A stretch of 64,000 nucleotides of DNA from Candidatus Omnitrophota bacterium (GTDB lineage Bacteria; Omnitrophota; Gorgyraeia; Gygaellales; Profunditerraquicolaceae): assembly GCA_035402765.1 (NCBI GenBank), contig DAONDX010000005.1, forward strand, positions 7,304-71,303, given 5' to 3'. Positions 2,724 through 11,848 of this stretch are shown in pieces; within the stretch, counting starts at the first letter, position 1, and the number at the start of each line of letters is the position of its first letter. Made by a program: the position numbers and the translations under genes. The notes beneath the pieces are model-generated. The model was not told where the DNA came from, ran no database searches, and saw only the letters and a list, made by a program, of their open reading frames with translations.

Positions 2724-2825
2724 CCGGAAATATAGAAATATATAGAAGTATTTCTGGAGGAGCTTTTGATGGTCGGGCCGCCATCTGATTTAATAATCAG
2801 GTGACGGTTTTTTGTTTTTCGGAGG
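2724..2825 (+). promoter_or_regulatory. conserved leader/attenuator element, copy 1
   Basis: Hairpin CCGGAAATA...TATTTCTGG. GGAGGA RBS. Mini-ORF ATGGTCGGGCCGCCATCT... spans 2769-2804 and encodes MVGPPSDLIIR. A terminator hairpin (CCGCCATCTGATT/AATCAGGTGACGG) is followed by TTTTTTGTTTTT, then the GGAGG RBS of the otsA-fusion gene. An alternative GATGG/CCATC hairpin overlaps the terminator's 5' arm. A near-identical copy lies at 8856-8945. Confidence 0.55.
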
Positions 2826-2833
2826 CTAATTAA

Positions 2834-5071
2834 ATGAAAAGAATTCTATTGTTTATCCTGCCCATATTAATCTTAGTTGCGCTTGGATTTGCTATTTCGG
2901 GCGTTATGCAAGCTCGTTTCACAGAAGATAAGCTTATGGATGATTTAAAAAGAAAAGCCAGGTCTGTGGATGAAGGCTTGGAATTATCAGCTAAGTATAT
3001 TCTTATTAACAATGATTTAAAGCAAGCCAACCGTTTAGTTGATAGCTTCCAGAAAAGAGAAAGGCTGCAAGGTTGTGTTATTTACGATAAAGATGGCCAG
3101 ATATTAGCGATTACTGAAAGATTCTCTGATTTTAAACAGAAAGAAAGGCCATATTTGAAAGATATCCTATCTTCTAAATCGCCGCGAGGAGCGCTGGAAA
3201 AGTTTAAAGAATACTCTGTATATAGCTACATTTTACCTGTCTTAAATGATGATGAGAGTGTATTAGGAATGGTAGAGGTAGTTTATGACACATCGTATAT
3301 GTTTACTACTTTAACTGAATTATGGAGAAAAATAAGCGTTACCTCCATTGCGCTTATCTTACTAATAGTTTTAACTGCCTTATTAATTCAGAGACAAATT
3401 TTTATTGTTCCGGTACGTAGGCTAACGCAGTGGTTTACGCATTTTCAAAGAGGAGAAACTGATAAATTGCGGCCGTTTGCTGAAAAAGGTGAATTTGGTA
3501 AGTTGATTAGTGAGGTAGAGCAGGTTGCCTTAAGCATTAGAGTAGCGCGTCGTACCATATCAGATGAAGCGCATGTGCGCTTGCAAAAAGAAGATCTTTG
3601 GACTGAAGCCAAGCTTAAAGATCTAATCCACGCAAAATTAGGAGAGAATTCTTTATTCGTGGTTTCTAATCGAGAGCCGTATATGCATGTTTTCGATGAG
3701 AATTTGGGTAAGGAGACATGCATAAGGCCGGCAAGTGGCGTGGTCACTGCGATACATCCAATACTTTCAGCTTGCGGTGGGACCTGGATTGCGCATGGCA
3801 GTGGTAATTCTGATAAAAAATTCGTTAACTCTAAAGATAAACTCGGCGTGCCTCCTGAGGATAACCGGTATATTCTTAAGAGAGTTTGGCTTAATAAGGA
3901 AGAAGAACAAGGTTATTATTATGGTTTTTCCAACGAAGGGTTATGGCCCTTATGCCATAATACACATACGCGGCCGGTTTTTAAAGAATCTGACTGGCGT
4001 ATGTATAAAGAAGTAAATCAGAAATTCGCAGACAGTATTTTAAATGAACTACCGGTAAGCAGCCCGTTTATATTTATCCAAGATTATCACTTTACTCTTT
4101 TGCCAAAGATGATCAAAGATAAACGGCCGGATGCAAAAGTAGCTTTATTCTGGCACATACCTTGGCCTACCCCTGAAGCTTTTATGATTTGTCCTTATCA
4201 GAATGAAATTTTAGAGGGCATGTTAGGATGTGATTTGATCGGTTTTCATGTTCAGAACCATTGCAACAATTTTTTGGATACCGCCAACCGTTTGCTTGAG
4301 TCACGCGTAGATACTGAAAAATTCAGTGTTGTGCGTTCGGGTAAGGAAACTTTTATCAGGGCTTTTCCTATCAGTATTGACTCGCATATTGGCGATGGTT
4401 CATTTAGAGTCGATCCTGTCAGACAGGTAGAGAAACTTAAGAAGGAGTTTGAGCTGAATGATGAAACTATTGTCGTGGGGGTGGATAGAATCGATTATAC
4501 TAAAGGCATAGTCGAGAAGATTTTAGCCGTCGATAGATTTTTAGATAAGTATCCTGAATATAAAAAGAAATTTGTTTTTATACAACTAGCCGCACCAAGC
4601 CGAACACATATTAAGCGTTATCATGATTTAATCGGGGAAATCGATGAATTAGTTGAAAAAATTAACTGGAAACATATAGATGGAAACTGGAAGCCAATAA
4701 TCTATCTAAAAAAGCATTTTTCTCAAGATGATATCCAGCCTTATTATAGGCTTGGTGATATTTGTATTGTTAGTTCGCTGCATGATGGCATGAATTTGGT
4801 GGCTAAAGAGTATGTTGCAGAGAAGGATGACTTATCCGGGGTGTTAATCTTAAGTCAATTCACCGGGGCAGCGCGAGAGCTTACCGATGCTATTTTGGTT
4901 AATCCATATTCAATTGAAGAGTTTGCGGATAGTATAAAATTGGCCATTCAGATGCCCAGGGAAGAGAAGGTGAGGCGTATGGTAAATATGCGTAAGGTGA
5001 TAGTGGAAAATAATATTTACCGCTGGGCAGCTAACATTATCAATGAGATGGTTGCATTAAAACAAATTTAA
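2834..5071 (+). CDS. otsA: membrane sensor (2 TM + periplasmic domain + HAMP) fused to trehalose-6-phosphate synthase (GT20)
   Basis: N-terminal ~260 aa: TM1 (ILLFILPILILVALGFAI), a periplasmic region, TM2 (ISVTSIALILLIVLTALLI), and a HAMP-like amphipathic segment (IVPVRRLTQWF...GEFGKLISEVEQVALSI). The C-terminal part aligns to OtsA motifs: LFVVSNREPY, GGTW, EGLWPLCH, VNQKFAD, IQDYHFTLLP, FWHIPWP, CDLIGFHVQ, VDRIDYTKGI, DGMNLVAKEYVA...LSQFTGAA...ILVNPY. Confidence 0.8.
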   Translation: MKRILLFILPILILVALGFAISGVMQARFTEDKLMDDLKRKARSVDEGLELSAKYILINNDLKQANRLVDSFQKRERLQGCVIYDKDGQILAITERFSDFKQKERPYLKDILSSKSPRGALEKFKEYSVYSYILPVLNDDESVLGMVEVVYDTSYMFTTLTELWRKISVTSIALILLIVLTALLIQRQIFIVPVRRLTQWFTHFQRGETDKLRPFAEKGEFGKLISEVEQVALSIRVARRTISDEAHVRLQKEDLWTEAKLKDLIHAKLGENSLFVVSNREPYMHVFDENLGKETCIRPASGVVTAIHPILSACGGTWIAHGSGNSDKKFVNSKDKLGVPPEDNRYILKRVWLNKEEEQGYYYGFSNEGLWPLCHNTHTRPVFKESDWRMYKEVNQKFADSILNELPVSSPFIFIQDYHFTLLPKMIKDKRPDAKVALFWHIPWPTPEAFMICPYQNEILEGMLGCDLIGFHVQNHCNNFLDTANRLLESRVDTEKFSVVRSGKETFIRAFPISIDSHIGDGSFRVDPVRQVEKLKKEFELNDETIVVGVDRIDYTKGIVEKILAVDRFLDKYPEYKKKFVFIQLAAPSRTHIKRYHDLIGEIDELVEKINWKHIDGNWKPIIYLKKHFSQDDIQPYYRLGDICIVSSLHDGMNLVAKEYVAEKDDLSGVLILSQFTGAARELTDAILVNPYSIEEFADSIKLAIQMPREEKVRRMVNMRKVIVENNIYRWAANIINEMVALKQI

Positions 5072-5085
5072 TTTATGAGGTGCAA

Positions 5086-6141
5086 ATGAATAAAGAGTTT
5101 TATGTAAAATTTAGTAGTTTAGCCGAAATGTTTATGCCTTTGATTATTTTCTTAATAGTTTTGCTTGTCGGGTTTATTATTAAAAAAATAATTCTCAGTC
5201 GACTTCTGCGCTGGGCAAAAAAAACATCTACCCAATTGGACGATATTATAGTGCAAGCTGCTAAAAGTCCACTTACGGTTATTTGCTTGATGTTGGCTTT
5301 ATATTTTGCGTTGCAATTTTCAAAACTCCCAGAAAATATTGTTCAGGTGATGAGTAAGAGTACTCTTATTCTAGGTATAATTGCTGCGGTATTAGCATTA
5401 GCGAATCTATTATCTGGGGTAATCAAGCTTTATGCTTCTCGAATTGATTCTGCTTTACCGGTTACTAGCCTCACTCAGAATATCGCCAGGGTTTTTGTTT
5501 TCTCAATCGGCGCGTTGATAATTCTTAACAGCTTAGGAATATCCATCACACCTATATTAGCTACTTTAGGAGTGGGTGGTTTAGCTGTAGCTTTGGCCCT
5601 CCAAGATACCCTAACTAATCTTTTCGCCGGATTCCATATTACTGTGGCTAAGCAAATCAGGGTCGGTGATTATATTAAATTGGAGTCAGGAGAAGAAGGT
5701 TATGTCGTGGATATTAACTGGCGATCAACAAAGATTAAAATGCTGTCCAATAACCTGGTGCTTATTCCAAATGATAAATTAAATAAAGCGATTGTTATCA
5801 ATTATTATTTACCGGATAAGGAAATGGCGGTTTTAGTTGATTTGGGGGTGCATTATAAAAGCGACTTGGGAAAAGTTGAGAAGGTTACCTGTGAAGTAGT
5901 AAGGTCTGTTATGAAAGAAGTAAACGGGGGAGTTGATTATTTTGAGCCATTTATCCGTTATCACACTTTTAGTGATTCTTGCATAAAATTTACAGTTATA
6001 TTAAGAGTTAAGGAATTTGCTGATCAGTATTTGATTAAACATGAGTTTATTAAGCGGCTGCATAAACGGTATACACAAGAAGGTATAAATATTCCTTATC
6101 CGATCATGACGATAAACTACGAGCAAGAGAAATCTGGATAA
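5086..6141 (+). CDS. mechanosensitive ion channel, MscS family
   Basis: TM helices followed by the conserved pore/beta-domain region GVGGLAVALALQDTLTNLFAGFHITVAKQIRVGDYIKL...GYVVDINWRSTKIKMLSNNLVLIPND. ATG 5086 is preferred over in-frame GTG 5080 because of the TGAGG RBS. Confidence 0.8.
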   Translation: MNKEFYVKFSSLAEMFMPLIIFLIVLLVGFIIKKIILSRLLRWAKKTSTQLDDIIVQAAKSPLTVICLMLALYFALQFSKLPENIVQVMSKSTLILGIIAAVLALANLLSGVIKLYASRIDSALPVTSLTQNIARVFVFSIGALIILNSLGISITPILATLGVGGLAVALALQDTLTNLFAGFHITVAKQIRVGDYIKLESGEEGYVVDINWRSTKIKMLSNNLVLIPNDKLNKAIVINYYLPDKEMAVLVDLGVHYKSDLGKVEKVTCEVVRSVMKEVNGGVDYFEPFIRYHTFSDSCIKFTVILRVKEFADQYLIKHEFIKRLHKRYTQEGINIPYPIMTINYEQEKSG

Positions 6142-6147
6142 TATAAA

Positions 6148-6948
6148 ATGCGTTATATTTTTAATGATTTAGATAAAATAAAAAGAAAATTGGTAGGTAA
6201 ATATATTTTTTTGTTCCTTGATTGCGATGGTACTTTGACGCCGATTGTTGATACGCCGGACAAAGCGATAATTCCCCCAGATACAAAAAAAATACTTAAT
6301 TTGTTGTCGCAGAAGAATAATTGTAGGATAGCCATTATTAGCGGTAGGGCCTTGGTTGATATTAAGAAAAAAGTTGGGCTTAAAAATATTATTTATTCAG
6401 GTAATCATGGTTTTCAAATCGAGGGGCCCAAGATTAATCATGAAATAGCAGTCCCCCTGGATTATAAAAAAATACTGGAGCGCATTAAGATTAAGCTCGA
6501 AGAGAGGCTTTTTGGCATAAAAGGAGTTTTTGTAGAAGATAAAAAGATTTCTTTGGCCTTGCATTATAGGCTAGCTAATCGAAAGCAGGTGCCCTTTATT
6601 AAAACTGTTTTTCATGAGAGCATTATTTTGTATTTAGTAAGAAATAAAATTAAGATTAGACCCGGGAAGGAGATTCTAGAAGTAATGCCTCCGGTTCATT
6701 GGGACAAAGGAAAGATTGTTTTGTGGCTTTTAGCCCGGCAGGAGGCTTTATCTAAAAACGGTCGGAATATTCCTATTTATATTGGAGATGATGCTACTGA
6801 TGAAGATGCTTTTAAAGCGCTTAAAAACAGAGGGTTAACCGTATTTGTAGGGAATGCCAATTCTTCGCAGGCAAAATATTATGTCAGAAATGTTAAAGAG
6901 GTCTATGAGTTATTAAAATATATCCTGGATATCCAGAATATAAAATAA
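6148..6948 (+). CDS. otsB: trehalose-6-phosphate phosphatase (HAD-IIB)
   Basis: FLFLDCDGTLTP (HAD motif I), IYIGDDATDEDAF (motif IV), typical OtsB length. Confidence 0.8.
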   Translation: MRYIFNDLDKIKRKLVGKYIFLFLDCDGTLTPIVDTPDKAIIPPDTKKILNLLSQKNNCRIAIISGRALVDIKKKVGLKNIIYSGNHGFQIEGPKINHEIAVPLDYKKILERIKIKLEERLFGIKGVFVEDKKISLALHYRLANRKQVPFIKTVFHESIILYLVRNKIKIRPGKEILEVMPPVHWDKGKIVLWLLARQEALSKNGRNIPIYIGDDATDEDAFKALKNRGLTVFVGNANSSQAKYYVRNVKEVYELLKYILDIQNIK

Positions 6949-6950
6949 CT

Positions 6951-7622
6951 ATGGTAGAGATAATAAGAGCTAAAGAGCCATTTAAATTTTACACCAGATT
7001 ACATTTAACTGAATTAACCGGGTTAAGAGCCACTACTTTAAGTCAGCTTGGCAGCCTTATTAAAAAGGTATCCGGATCAAGTATCTATCACCACACTCAC
7101 AGATTTCTGCAGCAGCATCAGTATCTTTCTCCCGAGCCCCCGAATGATTTTGCTTACTGGGTAACTGAAGTCCTGGGTGAGGATGAGTTGGGAGAGAAAT
7201 TAGCCAGCATTGATACTATTCAATATTCTACCATTCGTAGTCTTAGGGATAAAATCGTTTCAACAATTGATGATTATCTTGCGCATAGCCCTTTTGCTAA
7301 ATTAAAGTTTGCTAAAAGCGGAGAGGAGTTCCACTTTATGAAATCAGTAAGTTTTATTCTTCCTTCCGGATATAGCGTGACTGATTTAAGGGAATTTGCG
7401 GATTCCTTGCGGAAAATAACCATTGATTCCATATATTTCCATATTTTTGAGGCACGTTTAAGGCTTGAACGCGAAGGGAATGATTTTTCCAATTGGATCG
7501 AGCATTCTTTAGGAGATGAGGAATTAGCAAGAGAAATCTCAAACCTTGATCCGTATACCCAGACATTAGAAAATCTCAGGCAGTCGATTTTAAGCATTGT
7601 TCAAAAGAGGACGGGTTCTTAA
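6951..7622 (+). CDS. hypothetical protein conserved within the trehalose operon
   Basis: 223-aa ORF tightly packed between otsB and treT. No motif recognised. Confidence 0.4.
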   Translation: MVEIIRAKEPFKFYTRLHLTELTGLRATTLSQLGSLIKKVSGSSIYHHTHRFLQQHQYLSPEPPNDFAYWVTEVLGEDELGEKLASIDTIQYSTIRSLRDKIVSTIDDYLAHSPFAKLKFAKSGEEFHFMKSVSFILPSGYSVTDLREFADSLRKITIDSIYFHIFEARLRLEREGNDFSNWIEHSLGDEELAREISNLDPYTQTLENLRQSILSIVQKRTGS

Positions 7623-7623
7623 T

Positions 7624-8835
7624 ATGGCATACATAAAAGAATATATCCCGATTGTCGGACAGTCTATTATTGATGATTTACAGCTTCTTGGCGATAAGCT
7701 AGCTGGTAAGACAATTCAGCATATTAATTCTACGGCTGTAGGTGGAGGGGTGGCGGAAATATTAAATCGTATGGTTCCTCTTTTAAAGGAGCTTGGAGTG
7801 GATACGCGATGGGATGTGATTAAAGGTGGTGAGCAATTTTATGAAGTAACGAAAAAGTTTCATAACGCTTTGCATGGCAGGCAGGAATCTATAAATATGC
7901 GTGATTTCAATATCTTTATGGAAACTAGCGCTAAAAATATCGAGGAAGTAAATACATCCCGTGATATTGTTTTTGTTCATGATCCACAACCGATTGCGTT
8001 AGTAAAAAAGAAATCCGGGAATAAATGGATTTGGCGCTGCCATATTGATGTGTCAGGTCCTAACCAGAAAGTCTGGAAATTTCTCAGGAGTTATATTGAT
8101 AAATACGATGCAGCGGTATTCTCTGCTCCTGATTTTTCACCGCGATTGCCGATCAGGCAGTTTTTGATTGCTCCTTCGATCGATCCTTTAAGTGATAAAA
8201 ATAAGGAGTTGCCCCAAGATATAATTGATGGGGTTTTACAAAAATATAAGTTAACTATGGATAAGCCTATGTTGACGCAGATTTCGCGTTTTGACCGTTT
8301 AAAGGACCCTCTGGGGGTTATTGAAGCTTATCAGCAGGTAAAACGATATATCGATTGTCAGCTAATTTTAGCAGGAGGTACGGCCAGCGATGATCCTGAA
8401 GGTCTGAAGGTGCTTGAGGAAGTTCAAGAAAAGGCAAGTAAGGATAAAGATATTCATATTTTATTATTGCCTCAAAATGATATCGAAGTTAATGCTTTGC
8501 AGCGAGCCGCAACCGTTATTATTCAGAAGTCGCTTAAAGAAGGATTTGGCCTAACAGTTTCTGAAGCGTTATGGAAAGCCAAACCAGTTATTGCTTCCAA
8601 TGTTGGAGGGATTCCTCTGCAGATTAAGCATAAATACTCCGGATTGCTTTGTAGTTCGATTGATGGAGCAGCGTTTTCTATAAAACAGCTTTTTAATAGC
8701 CCAGAGTACGCTAAGAAATTGGGCCAGAACGGTAGAGAACACGTTAAAAATAATTTTTTACTAACCAGGCATTTACGTGAATATATGCTTTTGTTTCTTT
8801 CATTATATCATCCTGAAGATATCGTTTATCTTTAG
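7624..8835 (+). CDS. treT: trehalose glycosyltransferring synthase, TreT-like (GT4)
   Basis: Motifs shared with archaeal TreT: INSTAVGGGVAEIL, VFVHDPQP, WRCHIDVS, PSIDPLS, SRFDRLKDP, KEGFGLTVSEALWKAKPVI. ATG 7624 directly follows the upstream stop. The in-frame extension back to 7597 overlaps the previous gene. Confidence 0.75.
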   Translation: MAYIKEYIPIVGQSIIDDLQLLGDKLAGKTIQHINSTAVGGGVAEILNRMVPLLKELGVDTRWDVIKGGEQFYEVTKKFHNALHGRQESINMRDFNIFMETSAKNIEEVNTSRDIVFVHDPQPIALVKKKSGNKWIWRCHIDVSGPNQKVWKFLRSYIDKYDAAVFSAPDFSPRLPIRQFLIAPSIDPLSDKNKELPQDIIDGVLQKYKLTMDKPMLTQISRFDRLKDPLGVIEAYQQVKRYIDCQLILAGGTASDDPEGLKVLEEVQEKASKDKDIHILLLPQNDIEVNALQRAATVIIQKSLKEGFGLTVSEALWKAKPVIASNVGGIPLQIKHKYSGLLCSSIDGAAFSIKQLFNSPEYAKKLGQNGREHVKNNFLLTRHLREYMLLFLSLYHPEDIVYL

Positions 8836-8855
8836 TTAATTTGGTATACAAGGGT

Positions 8856-8945
8856 TCGGAAGTTTTTTCTTCCGGAGGATCTAGATGGTCGGGCCGCCAT
8901 CTTGCATGTTAGTGCAGGATGGCGTTTTTGTTTTATAAGGATAAA
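8856..8945 (+). promoter_or_regulatory. conserved leader/attenuator element, copy 2
   Basis: Hairpin CGGAAG...CTTCCGG. GGAGGA RBS. Mini-ORF 8885-8938 encodes MVGPPSCMLVQDGVFVL, with its first 18 nt identical to copy 1 (ATGGTCGGGCCGCCATCT). Hairpin CCATCTTGCA/TGCAGGATGG is followed by GTTTTTGTTTT. Confidence 0.55.
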
Positions 8946-8988: not shown

Positions 8989-9087
8989 ATGGACAAAGGA
9001 ATGAAGGTTATATTTATTATAATGGGAGTTTGTATTCTAACCGGGGTATTGTGTGTGATTTTTGCGTTTACTCATAACATTAGATAA
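8989..9087 (+). CDS. small single-TM peptide (32 aa)
   Basis: RBS GAGAGAGGAAGAG. MDKGMKVIFIIMGVCILTGVLCVIFAFTHNIR. Confidence 0.35.
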   Translation: MDKGMKVIFIIMGVCILTGVLCVIFAFTHNIR

Positions 9088-9244
9088 GGGGGTGCAGATT
9101 GAGGTTAAGTGGCTGGATATTTATGATAATTTCATGGACATGTATCTTGAGCATGTTAGTTTTTTGTTATAGCAAGATATTCAAAAAGGGACTTGGTGGT
9201 GATGATTCTAAAGTATTAAAACGGCTTAAGAAATAGGAGGTTTT

Positions 9245-9358
9245 ATGCGGGGTAATATATTACAAAATATAGGAGTAATTTTACTGGCAATTATAGTTTC
9301 GGCAGTTATCTATTTTATAAATAATAGAAAGACGATAAATAAAAGCAAAATTAAGTAA
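9245..9358 (+). CDS. small single-TM peptide (37 aa)
   Basis: Strong RBS AGGAGG 4 nt upstream. MRGNILQNIGVILLAIIVSAVIYFINNRKTINKSKIK. Confidence 0.4.
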   Translation: MRGNILQNIGVILLAIIVSAVIYFINNRKTINKSKIK

Positions 9359-9383
9359 GGCATAGATAGGATGGGAAGTCAAA

Positions 9384-9482
9384 ATGACTATAAACTTGGC
9401 TAGGGATTGGTCAACATTTCTTATTTGGGGCTTGGCAGTATTGAGTTTTATTGTTTTGGTTATCCTATATCATAAAAGTTAA
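9384..9482 (+). CDS. small single-TM peptide (32 aa), DW-motif paralog
   Basis: MTINLARDWSTFLIWGLAVLSFIVLVILYHKS. Shares the (R/Q)DW + TM pattern with the peptides at 10283 and 10421. Confidence 0.4.
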   Translation: MTINLARDWSTFLIWGLAVLSFIVLVILYHKS

Positions 9483-9522
9483 GAATAGAAAAAATTGATT
9501 AAATAATATGAAAGAGTAAAGA

Positions 9523-10131
9523 ATGAACCTAGGGCAGTTTTTAGCTATTTTTATCTCGGCAGTTTTTGTTAACAATGTTATCCTGTCACGTTTTTTAGGG
9601 TTGTGCCCCTTTGTCGCTATATCTAAAGACACAAGGCAGGCGTTTGTCATGAGTATGGCCGTTACGTTTGTGACTACAATATCGTCTGCCATAACCTGGC
9701 TGGTTTATAAATTTCTTTTGGTTCAATTTAACTTAACATATTTACGTACTTTAGTTTTTGTTTTAATCATTGCTGCTTTTGTGCAATTGGTGGAAATGAT
9801 AATAAGAAAAACGAGCCCCGCCCTTTATCGCGCCTTCGGTATTTATCTTGTTTTAATTACAACAAATTGCGCAGTTTTAGGCGTAGCGGTTTTAAATATT
9901 GATATGTTTTTTGTAGACAATAAAGCAATAACTGGAAGCTTTGCATTCTCAATATTCCAGGGGTTATGTGTAGGAATTGGCTATACTTTAGCTATGCTTT
10001 TGATGTCAGGTATTAGGGAGCGGCTTGAACTTTGTACTTCACCCAAAGCATTGCAAGGTTTGCCTTTAGCTTTTATTGTTGCTTCTATAATGAGTCTTGC
10101 TTTTATGGGGTTTGGCGGATTCAAATTCTGA
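9523..10131 (+). CDS. RnfA/NqrE-family membrane subunit (orphan)
   Basis: VNNVILSRFLGLCPF, LTYLRTLVFVLIIAAFVQLVEMIIRKTSPALYRAFGIYLVLITTNCAVLGVAVLN and MSLAFMGFGG closely match RnfA/RsxA. No other rnf/nqr subunit is in the window. Confidence 0.8.
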   Translation: MNLGQFLAIFISAVFVNNVILSRFLGLCPFVAISKDTRQAFVMSMAVTFVTTISSAITWLVYKFLLVQFNLTYLRTLVFVLIIAAFVQLVEMIIRKTSPALYRAFGIYLVLITTNCAVLGVAVLNIDMFFVDNKAITGSFAFSIFQGLCVGIGYTLAMLLMSGIRERLELCTSPKALQGLPLAFIVASIMSLAFMGFGGFKF

Positions 10132-10176
10132 AATAAAGGTTTATTAAGTTAATAAGAGACAGAATTGTACGATATC

Positions 10177-10302
10177 ATGCGTTTATGGGCGCTTATTATT
10201 GCTGTCTTTATGTTATTTTTCTTTATAATTTTCTCGCAGAAGATTAAAGAAGAAAGTAAGTGTAATAAAGAAGATAAAAATTATGGAAAGAATAAAGCCT
10301 GA
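10177..10302 (+). CDS. small single-TM peptide (41 aa)
   Basis: MRLWALIIAVFMLFFFIIFSQKIKEESKCNKEDKNYGKNKA. Weak RBS. Confidence 0.25.
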   Translation: MRLWALIIAVFMLFFFIIFSQKIKEESKCNKEDKNYGKNKA

Positions 10303-10375
10303 AATGACCGGAGATTTATCTAGAGATTGGATTCTTTATGTGTTTTTAGCCGGAGTAACAGGCGTTATTATTTAA
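10283..10375 (+). CDS. small single-TM peptide (30 aa), DW-motif paralog
   Basis: MERIKPEMTGDLSRDWILYVFLAGVTGVII. Overlaps the previous small ORF in a different frame. Confidence 0.3.
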   Translation: MERIKPEMTGDLSRDWILYVFLAGVTGVII

Positions 10376-10420
10376 TTATTCTAGTGAAAAAAACGAAAGT
10401 TAAAAAGGAGGGATTCTCAA

Positions 10421-10564
10421 ATGGCAGGTAATTTAGTGCAGGATTGGCCCGTGTATGTACTGGGAGGATTAGTAATATTTTTCTTTGCTTATATGATTAT
10501 CAAAAGTAACTTTGGTGAAAAAGACAAAAATACAACTCAACCGTCAGATAAGGTTAATAAATAG
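10421..10564 (+). CDS. small single-TM peptide (47 aa), DW-motif paralog
   Basis: Strong RBS AAGGAGGG. MAGNLVQDWPVYVLGGLVIFFFAYMIIKSNFGEKDKNTTQPSDKVNK. Confidence 0.45.
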   Translation: MAGNLVQDWPVYVLGGLVIFFFAYMIIKSNFGEKDKNTTQPSDKVNK

Positions 10565-10566
10565 GA

Positions 10567-11188
10567 ATGGATAGAAGTATTATTCCGCTTTTTCTATTTG
10601 TTCTGGGCTATATTTTATTCGTGGCGTTTCCCGGAAGGATGTCTTTGGTTGTATAATTGCAGCCAGGTTACTTTCAATAACCCGACTGTTGTCCTTTCTT
10701 GGGGCCATGAATTTTGTAAATTGGAATGTCATGGGAATTTTCGTGGGCACATTAGCCGTAGCGGATGTTTTTATGGAAAGTAAGGTGCCTGTGGTTATTG
10801 CTGAGATTATTGTTGATAAAGCCCATAATACTGCTTGGGCAATTTTATTTTTGTGTGTTTTACAGTTTTTACCTCTGCGTTTGTGGACAATATTCCTTTC
10901 TTAGTAGCTATGTTATCTGTGGCCATTTAGATGGCTAGTAAACTTAATGTAAGCCCTTCATTGTTTCTTTTTGGGATACTTATTGGTGCAAGTTTAGGAG
11001 GCGATATTACACCGATCGGAGCTTTGGCTAATATTGTTACCTGTGGTTTACTTAAAAAAGAGGGATATATATTTAAGTTTAAAGATTTTATGAAAATTGG
11101 AATTCGTTTTACTTTTGCCGCTGTAGCTGCCGCGTATTTATTTGTTTGGTTCATTTGGAGGCCACGATTTTCTTATTGTCTGCCATAG
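10567..11188 (+). pseudogene. degraded ArsB/NhaD/CitMHS-type anion permease (frameshifts plus internal deletion)
   Basis: Three frames together encode an N-terminal part (IIPLFLFVLGYILFVAFPG; NFVNWNVMGIFVGTLAVADVF...AILFLCV; SAFVDNIPFLVAMLSVAI in a shifted frame) and a C-terminal part (GGDITPIGALANIVTCGLL...) of a ~420-aa permease. The middle ~220 aa are missing. Confidence 0.55.
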
Positions 11189-11363
11189 AGAAGCGGTCAA
11201 TTGGTTAACCTTTTAATTGTAAACAGTTACACGATTTAGAGCTAAAAATTACCGGATAAAACGGACTTCTGCTCCGCCTTCGGTTTCGCAGGATTTGACT
11301 AAATCAAAGCTTAATGTGCTCAAAATTTAGCGAGGAAATAGCCTCTCCAAATACAGAATATTC

Positions 11364-11392
11364 TTGATATGTCGGGGTATTACACCTGTAAT
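11364..11392 (+). promoter_or_regulatory. sigma-70-like promoter of the candidate sRNA
   Basis: TTGATA, 17 nt, TGTAAT. Confidence 0.35.
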
Positions 11393-11398
11393 TAAGCT

Positions 11399-11562
11399 AA
11401 TATATTTAGAGAGGTTTCCCCTTGGCCTATCCGAGTGGGACCCTTAAATTTCCCTCATTTGCGGATAAGAAATTTATCCCGGGTGAAGTGAGGGATAGCA
11501 TAAAACACAAGTAAGCCTAAAGGCTATTGATTGGAAACGATCAATAGCCTTTATATTTGTTT
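11399..11562 (+). ncRNA. candidate small RNA (promoter + nested hairpins + intrinsic terminator)
   Basis: Nested inverted repeats TCCCTCA...TGAGGGA enclose GGATAA-N5-TTATCC. The transcript ends in the strong terminator at 11521-11562. No ORF with an RBS is present. Confidence 0.3.
11521..11562 (+). terminator. rho-independent terminator
   Basis: AGGCTATTGAT / ATCAATAGCCT 11-bp stem with a 7-8-nt loop, then TTTATATTTGTTT. Confidence 0.6.
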
Positions 11563-11616: not shown

Positions 11617-11644
11617 TTGACAAAAAAATATTAAATGTTATACT
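11617..11644 (+). promoter_or_regulatory. consensus sigma-70 promoter upstream of amtB
   Basis: TTGACA, 16 nt, TATACT, with an A-rich UP-like tract upstream. Confidence 0.6.
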
Positions 11645-11649
11645 TTTTC

Positions 11650-11665
11650 TTGACAGTGATGTCAA
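11650..11665 (+). promoter_or_regulatory. perfect palindromic operator candidate at the predicted TSS
   Basis: TTGACAGTGATGTCAA (6-4-6 perfect inverted repeat) immediately downstream of the -10. Confidence 0.4.
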
Positions 11666-11676
11666 AGAAGTAAAGA

Positions 11677-11758
11677 GACAAAGATGCCCCGGGAACTATC
11701 TGGGGTTTTTCTATTTTTCAGGGACAAAGATGCCCTTTTTTAAAAGCAGAGATGCTTT
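11677..11758 (+). repeat. direct repeats GACAAAGATGCCC (two copies) plus palindrome AAAGCAGAGATGCTTT
   Basis: Copies at 11677-11689 and 11724-11736. The palindrome is at 11743-11758. Each is followed by a T-rich run. Confidence 0.5.
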
Positions 11759-11786
11759 CGAAAAAGGGTTTTATTTTTTTAAAGAC

Positions 11787-11830
11787 AGAGACGTCTTCAA
11801 TCTAACAGAAAGAAGTCGTCTCTTTTTTTT
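11787..11830 (+). terminator. hairpin + U8 intrinsic-terminator-like structure directly upstream of amtB
   Basis: AGAGACGTCTTC...GAAGTCGTCTCT (11/12 complementary) followed by TTTTTTTT. Confidence 0.5.
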
Positions 11831-11845
11831 GGGACGGGAAAGGCA
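11830..11845 (+). promoter_or_regulatory. sigma-54-like -24/-12 element
   Basis: TGGGACGGGAAAGGCA versus consensus TGGCACG-N4-TTGCA (GG and GC correctly spaced). It lies only ~4 nt upstream of the annotated ATG, so the true amtB start may be the downstream ATG at 11882. Confidence 0.3.
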
Positions 11846-11848
11846 GGA

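Follow-up and report, generated by a model that had tools for sequence, protein, structure and literature searches.

Weinberg et al. (2017 NAR) discovered the nhaA-I RNA motif in the leaders of genes for Na+/H+ antiporters, and White et al. (2022 Sci Rep, PMC9646797) validated it as a riboswitch, Li+-I, that acts as a genetic ON switch. Most of its members stand before nhaA and are thought to occlude the ribosome-binding site. "Rare variants" that carry an intrinsic terminator were named Na+-II and reported only in Deltaproteobacteria in RefSeq 80 (PMC9646797). In single-round in vitro transcription, the D. propionicus RNA of this type was strongly activated by Na+ and weakly by Li+, and Na+-II binds Na+ selectively with a KD of about 1–2 mM (PMC9646797). 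Mutations in the AGG guanines (M2) or in the loop (M3) abolish the ion response, and C54U (M4) broadens it to Li+, Na+ and NH4+ alike (PMC9646797). The genes tabulated downstream of the class include otsA (16), mscS (3), a putative citrate transporter (5), DUF1646 (4) and hypothetical genes (171), and trehalose control was discussed either as a Li+ response or as a Na+/osmotic response (PMC9646797). A further cation-sensing ON switch, the Na+-I riboswitch (DUF1646 motif; White et al., 2022 Nat Chem Biol, PMC9337991), usually works through a terminator platform, and its regulon covers Na+ transport and osmotic stress.

We compared these systems with two leader elements on the + strand of a 64-kb stretch of DNA, hereafter the window, from a low-GC organism close to Omnitrophota. 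Both elements are very probably nhaA-I RNAs (Li+-I/Na+-II riboswitches) that work as transcriptional ON switches. An Rfam 15 scan of the window returned two gathering-level matches, both to RF03057 (nhaA-I RNA) and both covering the complete model (positions 1–55). Copy 2 (8852–8902) scored 49.0 bits against a gathering score of 37 (E = 1.2e-6), and copy 1 (2720–2786) scored 39.9 bits (E = 1.9e-4), which is 2.9 bits over the threshold, with UGGU instead of GGGU at its start and an unusually long P1 loop. A permissive scan of the whole window (E ≤ 1) gave no other family matches and no weaker third copy. The Na+-I riboswitch, unlike the two elements, has an unrelated aptamer consensus, and it had no Rfam match in the window.

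All parts of the aptamer could be placed in both copies by the Rfam alignment and by helix parsing. Copy 1 starts with UGGU (2720–2723), followed by a 10-bp P1 (5' arm 2724–2733, loop 2734–2747, 3' arm 2748–2757), AGG (2758–2760), a linker (2761–2767), the P2 5' arm GAUGG (2768–2772), the P2 loop UCGGGCCG (2773–2780) and the P2 3' arm CCAUC (2781–2785). Copy 2 consists of GGGU (8852–8855), a 7-bp P1 (5' arm 8856–8862, loop 8863–8868, 3' arm 8869–8875), AGG (8876–8878), a linker (8879–8883) and P2 (5' arm 8884–8888, loop 8889–8896, 3' arm 8897–8901), so that the initial UGGU of copy 1 is the one deviation from the GGGU-P1-AGG pattern. In both copies, GAUGG and CCAUC close the conserved loop. 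The first-pass annotation, made from the sequence alone, had described the two sites in other terms: its "GGAGGA Shine-Dalgarno" maps in the Rfam alignment to the last P1 pairs plus the conserved AGG, and its segment ATGGTCGGGCCGCCATC maps to helix P2 with the conserved loop.

The two copies share features with both published subtypes. Like Li+-I, they have GGGU (with the deviation given above), P1, AGG, linker, P2 and a loop that includes the consensus U after the P2 5' arm, they belong to a class of ON switches, and their downstream genes include otsA and mscS, which are on the published list. The association of Li+-I with cation-transport and osmotic genes is also found here, with copy 1 before otsA-mscS-otsB and copy 2 before membrane peptides, RnfA and a transporter remnant. 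Unlike most Li+-I members, they carry intrinsic terminators and precede trehalose genes or small peptides. Like the D. propionicus Na+-II RNA, they have a terminator that overlaps the 3' half of P2, which in that RNA gives way to antitermination upon cation binding, and they too are associated with hypothetical or non-nhaA genes. The P1 of Na+-II, of the type pyrimidine-C...G-purine plus AGG (UCCAGAAAC.../...GUUUCUGGAGG), is very similar to that of copy 1. The difference from Na+-II lies in the C54 and the A-U closing pair of D. propionicus (GUUAG-C-CGGGCCG-CUAAC), in contrast to GAUGG-U-CGGGCCG-CCAUC in the window, which is of the C54U-mutant type. The taxon also differs, given that Na+-II was described in Deltaproteobacteria and the nearest relatives of the window copies are Omnitrophota MAGs, but taxon is arguably not a defining trait.

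Each aptamer runs into an intrinsic terminator on the + strand. In copy 1 (2778–2819), a hairpin at 2778–2807 (terminator-like match 2782–2803) is followed by the U-tract TTTTTTGTTTTT (2808–2819), and its 5' arm reuses the P2 loop and 3' arm at 2778–2785. In copy 2 (8895–8934), a 13-bp hairpin (8895–8924) is followed by the U-tract TTTTTGTTTT (8925–8934) and shares 8895–8901 with P2. The overlap between terminator and P2 thus amounts to 7–8 nt across both copies, whose strong downstream hairpins both reuse CCGCCATC. Leader folding gave z-scores of −4.1 and −5.2 for the two copies relative to shuffled sequence. When the aptamer part was folded alone, P1 and P2 (GATGG/CCATC) formed, while the whole leader folded into P1 plus terminator. 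With P2 enforced, the best folds reached −22.7 kcal/mol in copy 1 and −23.6 kcal/mol in copy 2, as compared to −30.5 and −36.4 kcal/mol for the respective terminator folds. Both of the mutually exclusive foldings proposed in the first-pass annotation therefore exist, with the terminator prevailing in the full leader. The terminator exceeds every P2-keeping fold in stability by 8–13 kcal/mol, which makes OFF the default state, and ligand would turn the switch ON.

These structures suggest a mechanism in which the nascent leader would fold into the aptamer (GGGU, P1, AGG, linker and P2 with loop UCGGGCCG) and a bound monovalent cation would hold P2, withholding the 3' strand CCGCCAUC from the terminator hairpin and letting the polymerase enter the genes. 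If no ligand is bound, the terminator, by far the more stable structure, would form and end transcription at the U-tract. Li+ or Na+ binding and antitermination without ribosomes are properties of the class as described in the literature.

The attenuator model of the first-pass annotation was correct in placing a cis-acting leader here and in having a terminator exclude a competing upstream hairpin, but its sensor was a translated peptide, and the sensor we find is the nhaA-I aptamer (RF03057). According to that model, ribosomes translating MVGPPS... would stall at Pro-Pro in an EF-P-dependent manner and so select between antiterminator and terminator. Attenuators of the trp/his type and polyproline/EF-P stalling leaders do set a premature intrinsic terminator against alternative upstream pairing in a 5' leader, and the mutual exclusion of terminator and upstream hairpin would fit them. 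So would the GGAGGA found 5–7 nt upstream of an AUG in both copies, and the AUG, GUG or UUG present at that position in 45 of 48 GGAGG-type aptamers retrieved with the outer P2 stem left free. This last regularity is explained by the conserved U-A pair of P2, however, and the Shine-Dalgarno-like and AUG nucleotides are themselves structural parts of a curated RNA family, with the G of AGG and the preceding GG paired or conserved in the folded aptamer. In trp/his-type and stalling leaders, the leader ORF must be translated and conserved, contain regulatory codons and stop at a defined position. In the window, by contrast, an RNA helix gives rise to the apparent ORF as a by-product, and this ORF is not conserved; MVGPPS is forced by fixed RNA sequence. 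Among the 85 aptamers listed by a genome scan with the same 18-mer and U at the variable position, the putative ORF ranged from 7 to more than 100 codons and was unrelated past residue 6. Its stop was not fixed relative to the terminator either, as it comprised 11 and 17 codons in the window and was fused in frame to the next gene in the related locus L050.

Published members of the family also argue against the peptide. Validated P2 arms (GUUAG/CUAAC, GCUGG/CCAGC and CGCAGG/CCAUGCG) put UUA, CUG and CAG at the AUG position, with UUA in D. propionicus and CUG in A. caulinodans in the published sequences. A fourth validated RNA, that of R. eutropha (GUUGG/CCAAC), has UUG there, which is a start under table 11. 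If translated, the D. propionicus RNA would have Pro-Leu where the model requires Pro-Pro. Both P2 arms change together, as predicted by RNA pairing and not by a peptide, and ion-dependent antitermination was obtained with purified polymerase in a ribosome-free system and was lost upon mutation of the "Shine-Dalgarno" Gs. We therefore consider a translation-coupled attenuator very improbable, with a non-conserved ORF, validated members without AUG and a ribosome-free ion response all contradicting the Pro-Pro mini-ORF as sensor. In the GGAGG subtype, ribosome binding at the Shine-Dalgarno-like GGAGG before AUG may add an effect to that of the riboswitch in vivo.

Copy 1 lies 48 nt upstream of the start of the first gene of operon 1 (2834–8835, +), in which Pfam and NCBIfam matches identified a transmembrane/Cache-OtsA fusion (2834–5071), an MscS-type channel (5080–6141), the trehalose-6-phosphate phosphatase OtsB (6148–6948), a DUF5752 protein (6951–7622) and a TreT-like GT4 trehalose synthase (7597–8835). 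A candidate σ70-like promoter (2667–2695, +), composed of TTTACA, a 17-nt spacer and TG-TAAACT, stands between the terminator (2544–2590) of the preceding methyltransferase gene and the aptamer, about 25 nt from the latter. It matches the consensus at 9 of 12 positions with an extended −10, and on this match may drive the operon. Copy 1 would gate the trehalose-synthesis/MscS operon. OtsA (a GT20 trehalose-6-phosphate synthase) carries a fused N-terminal transmembrane segment and dCache-like periplasmic sensor domain, and many loci of Omnitrophota and Elusimicrobia keep this fusion behind an nhaA-I riboswitch (40–73% identity); its domain composition suggests a second, protein-level sensory input into trehalose synthesis. 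DUF5752 was always located between OtsB and the TreT-like synthase in every related trehalose operon retrieved.

Copy 2 begins 17 nt downstream of the TreT stop (8835), and the interval between this stop and the aptamer contains no other terminator and no promoter-like (σ70-like) site. We infer from the lack of such sites behind TreT that, in the OFF state, operon 1 probably also terminates at the copy 2 hairpin, and that copy 2 is probably fed by read-through from operon 1. Directly behind operon 1, copy 2 would end that operon conditionally and provide a second checkpoint for the genes that follow, which comprise small peptides and an orphan RnfA. This unit 2 (8990–11553, +) ends in a terminator at 11518–11553 and contains seven ORFs for small single-transmembrane peptides (8990–9087, 9099–9236, 9245–9358, 9384–9482, 10177–10302, 10304–10375 and 10421–10564), the RnfA gene (9523–10131; TIGR01943, 237 bits vs. 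a cutoff of 229) and a frameshifted remnant of a CitMHS/ArsB-type transporter (10567–11190), all on the + strand. The gene context given in the first-pass annotation, with copy 1 before the Cache-OtsA/MscS/OtsB/DUF5752/TreT operon and copy 2 between this operon and small ORFs with an RnfA-like gene, was accurate.

The seven small ORFs encode 23–47 amino acids behind good Shine-Dalgarno sites, and three of the seven products have an N-terminal x-N/D-L-x-x-D-W motif. Pfam and NCBIfam searches with the seven peptides returned nothing significant, and the published association table probably counts them as hypothetical genes. Several phyla have peptides resembling pepB (GWIFMI..W) behind nhaA-I RNAs. 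No other Rnf/Nqr-family genes were found in the 64 kb. RnfA-like genes are also the immediate downstream neighbors of nhaA-I riboswitches in L056 and in L109, where the protein shows 36% identity and a pepB-like peptide comes next. The CitMHS/ArsB (NhaD-like) gene is split into at least four short frames, far below full gene length, and its homologue in L050 starts intact at the same place; 10567–11190 is likely a pseudogene or an assembly frameshift.

Further downstream, a near-consensus σ70 promoter (11617–11644, +; TTGACA, a 16-nt spacer and TG-TATACT) precedes a leader of about 200 nt that extends to 11848. Three successive elements of hairpin plus T-run, each behind an AGAGAYG/AAGATGC-like motif, follow in this leader before an amtB-glnB-GSIII operon. 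The 11617–11848 region had no Rfam match; it resembles an antitermination leader with several terminators in front of nitrogen genes. A link between the NH4+ response of the U54 mutant and the neighboring amtB operon was considered and dropped, as amtB has its own promoter (11617–11644) behind the terminator at 11518–11553.

The arrangement extends beyond the window. An OtsA protein identical to that of operon 1 is encoded on JGI contig Ga0116247_10000457 (82 kb), and the closest named relative among the matches listed was an Omnitrophica MAG (L050) with 78% TreT identity. Rfam matches occupied syntenic positions in 12 related loci, and the layout of riboswitch, trehalose operon, riboswitch and small peptides is kept in related Omnitrophota contigs. 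The same trehalose operon follows an nhaA-I RNA in L106, L188, L129, L116, L047, L075 and L080, among others, and the position of copy 2 after TreT is occupied by an Rfam match in L050, L237, L240, L160 and L056. Behind the syntenic riboswitch, pepA–pepD and pepG are kept (L050, L240, L160 and L237): L050 and L240 share the order OtsB-DUF5752-TreT, riboswitch, pepA-pepB-pepC, while TreT, riboswitch, pepA and pepB are kept in L160, and L237 has the operon and riboswitch with only pepB and pepG behind. In L077, two terminator-type switches 1.26 kb apart control MscS and an HflK/C-like pair.

This synteny also bears on the possibility that the two sites are a generic repeat, either a REP-like element or repeats at the borders of a 6.1-kb trehalose module gained by horizontal transfer (the first-pass annotation had offered an acquired module as an alternative). 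The 18-mer core GATGGTCGGGCCGCCATC occurs exactly twice in the 64 kb, at 2768–2785 and 8884–8901, both on the + strand; no third copy with three or fewer mismatches was present in the window, where 0.03 would be expected by chance. The copies are spaced 6116 nt apart and enclose a functionally coherent gene block, as boundary repeats might. Both have the same order of parts, namely a hairpin ending in ...YGG, AGG, a linker of 5–7 nt, the 18-mer, a strong hairpin and a T-run, and the architecture is thus present twice with the parts, order and positions first described. Yet exact identity is limited to 19 nt (2768–2786 = 8884–8902) without extended identity in the flanks, and the P1, linker and terminator sequences differ between the copies. 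GC content shows no shift (0.34–0.39 within the block, 0.33–0.41 outside), the only two copies per 64 kb each lie in a leader, and the riboswitch positions are syntenic in relatives diverged to about 75–80% protein identity. Among the matches listed, the further copies retrieved, including those in other phyla, were all in 5' leaders of salt-related genes and not scattered in non-leader contexts. The probability that the element is such a repeat appears negligible.

The riboswitch reading of both copies is accompanied by a broad distribution of the RNA. A genome scan with the query GATGGYCGGGCCGCCATC gave at least 120 loci; among the matches listed, 73 had the GGGU-P1-AGG context and about 30 aptamers bore terminators. 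The terminator-type copies listed were mostly in Omnitrophota, Elusimicrobia, Planctomycetota and deltaproteobacterial MAGs, and also in Nitrospirae. Terminator-type nhaA-I RNAs are therefore not confined to Deltaproteobacteria, contrary to the picture from the 2022 database, and are common outside this group among the matches listed. The genes behind them include Cache-OtsA operons, MscS, SPFH/HflKC-like pairs, DUF1646, Na+/H+ exchangers, RnfA-like genes and small transmembrane peptides, and form a coherent salt/osmotic-stress regulon. A metagenome scan with the outer P2 stem left free yielded 48 well-formed aptamers, 24 of them with terminators, and compensatory variants of the outer P2 pairs (GATGG/CCATC, AATGG/CCATT, GCTGG/CCAGC, GACGG/CCGTC and GTTGG/CCAAC).

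P1 also covaries. Across 133 distinct aptamers, pair 1 was C-G in 61, G-C in 32, U-G in 28 and U-A in 10, and pair 5 was A-U in 46, C-G in 35 and G-C in 34; these counts come from a structural parse anchored on GGU...AGG that required at least five pairs and is thereby biased towards pairing, so that the diversity of pair types is their informative part. An alignment of 51 aptamers with MAFFT, meant as the basis of a covariance model, was set aside in favor of this parse because many of its rows had the P1 3' arm and AGG out of register. Because the scans fixed GGTCGGGCCGCC or the whole 18-mer, the invariance of the loop rests on the Rfam consensus and published sequences.

Which cation these aptamers sense may depend on position 54, the first loop nucleotide after the P2 5' arm, which is U in both copies (2773 and 8889). 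This U matches the Li+-I consensus and the C54U mutant, while the validated Na+-II RNA of D. propionicus has C. When this position was left free in the genome scan, all 30 terminator-flagged copies among the matches listed had U. The only terminator-type copy with C among the matches listed was L069, recognized by eye. Matches with C were mostly chance occurrences in coding sequence of high-GC genomes, with only L069 and L120 resembling aptamers among those listed. The same riboswitch could thus be Li+-selective (Li+-I), with the trehalose genes and peptides induced by lithium toxicity instead of sodium or osmotic stress. A U at this specificity-linked position in both copies would be consistent with it, and Li+ control of trehalose synthesis was raised as one possibility by White et al. 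(2022; PMC9646797). On the other hand, the C54U mutant of a terminator-type RNA answered Na+ as well as Li+, and terminator platforms with non-nhaA gene sets are the authors' hallmark of the Na+-responsive group (PMC9646797). The regulon of compatible-solute synthesis, MscS, Na+/H+ exchangers, DUF1646 and SPFH proteins fits salt or osmotic stress. Li+ is scarce in nature. We regard Li+ selectivity as unlikely. Given the terminator platform and the osmotic-stress regulon, we infer that the physiological ligand of the window copies is Na+, as a signal of salt or osmotic stress, with Li+ probably also active.

Earlier work had already described this architecture, its terminator variant and the association with trehalose genes, and the family is a known one. 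What appeared to be a new Pro-Pro attenuator belongs to a riboswitch class that is curated and has been validated by experiment, and a false lead is thereby removed. Our analysis adds a clear case, from an uncultured lineage close to Omnitrophota, of cation-riboswitch control over MscS and trehalose (compatible-solute) synthesis, and the bracketing of the trehalose operon by two switches is a side value of the finding. Most likely, both copies switch on the trehalose/osmotic-stress operon and the cluster of tiny membrane proteins as salt rises. The presence of U and not C at position 54 in nearly all terminator-type RNAs with a GAUGG/CCAUC P2 bears on how Li+/Na+ selectivity is encoded. More tentatively, and with somewhat less than even confidence, we propose that U54 terminator-type nhaA-I aptamers are a distinct and widespread Na+ sensor of Omnitrophota, Elusimicrobia and Planctomycetota rather than a rarity of Deltaproteobacteria, whose regulon would include the trehalose operon bracketed by two switches as a two-checkpoint design, unannotated families of single-transmembrane peptides of 30–47 amino acids and an orphan RnfA. 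The small membrane peptides, which are conserved and under riboswitch control, and the orphan RnfA are candidates for roles in Na+ homeostasis and, if this proposal is true, uncharacterized small proteins and a stand-alone RnfA would be implicated in sodium and osmotic homeostasis.
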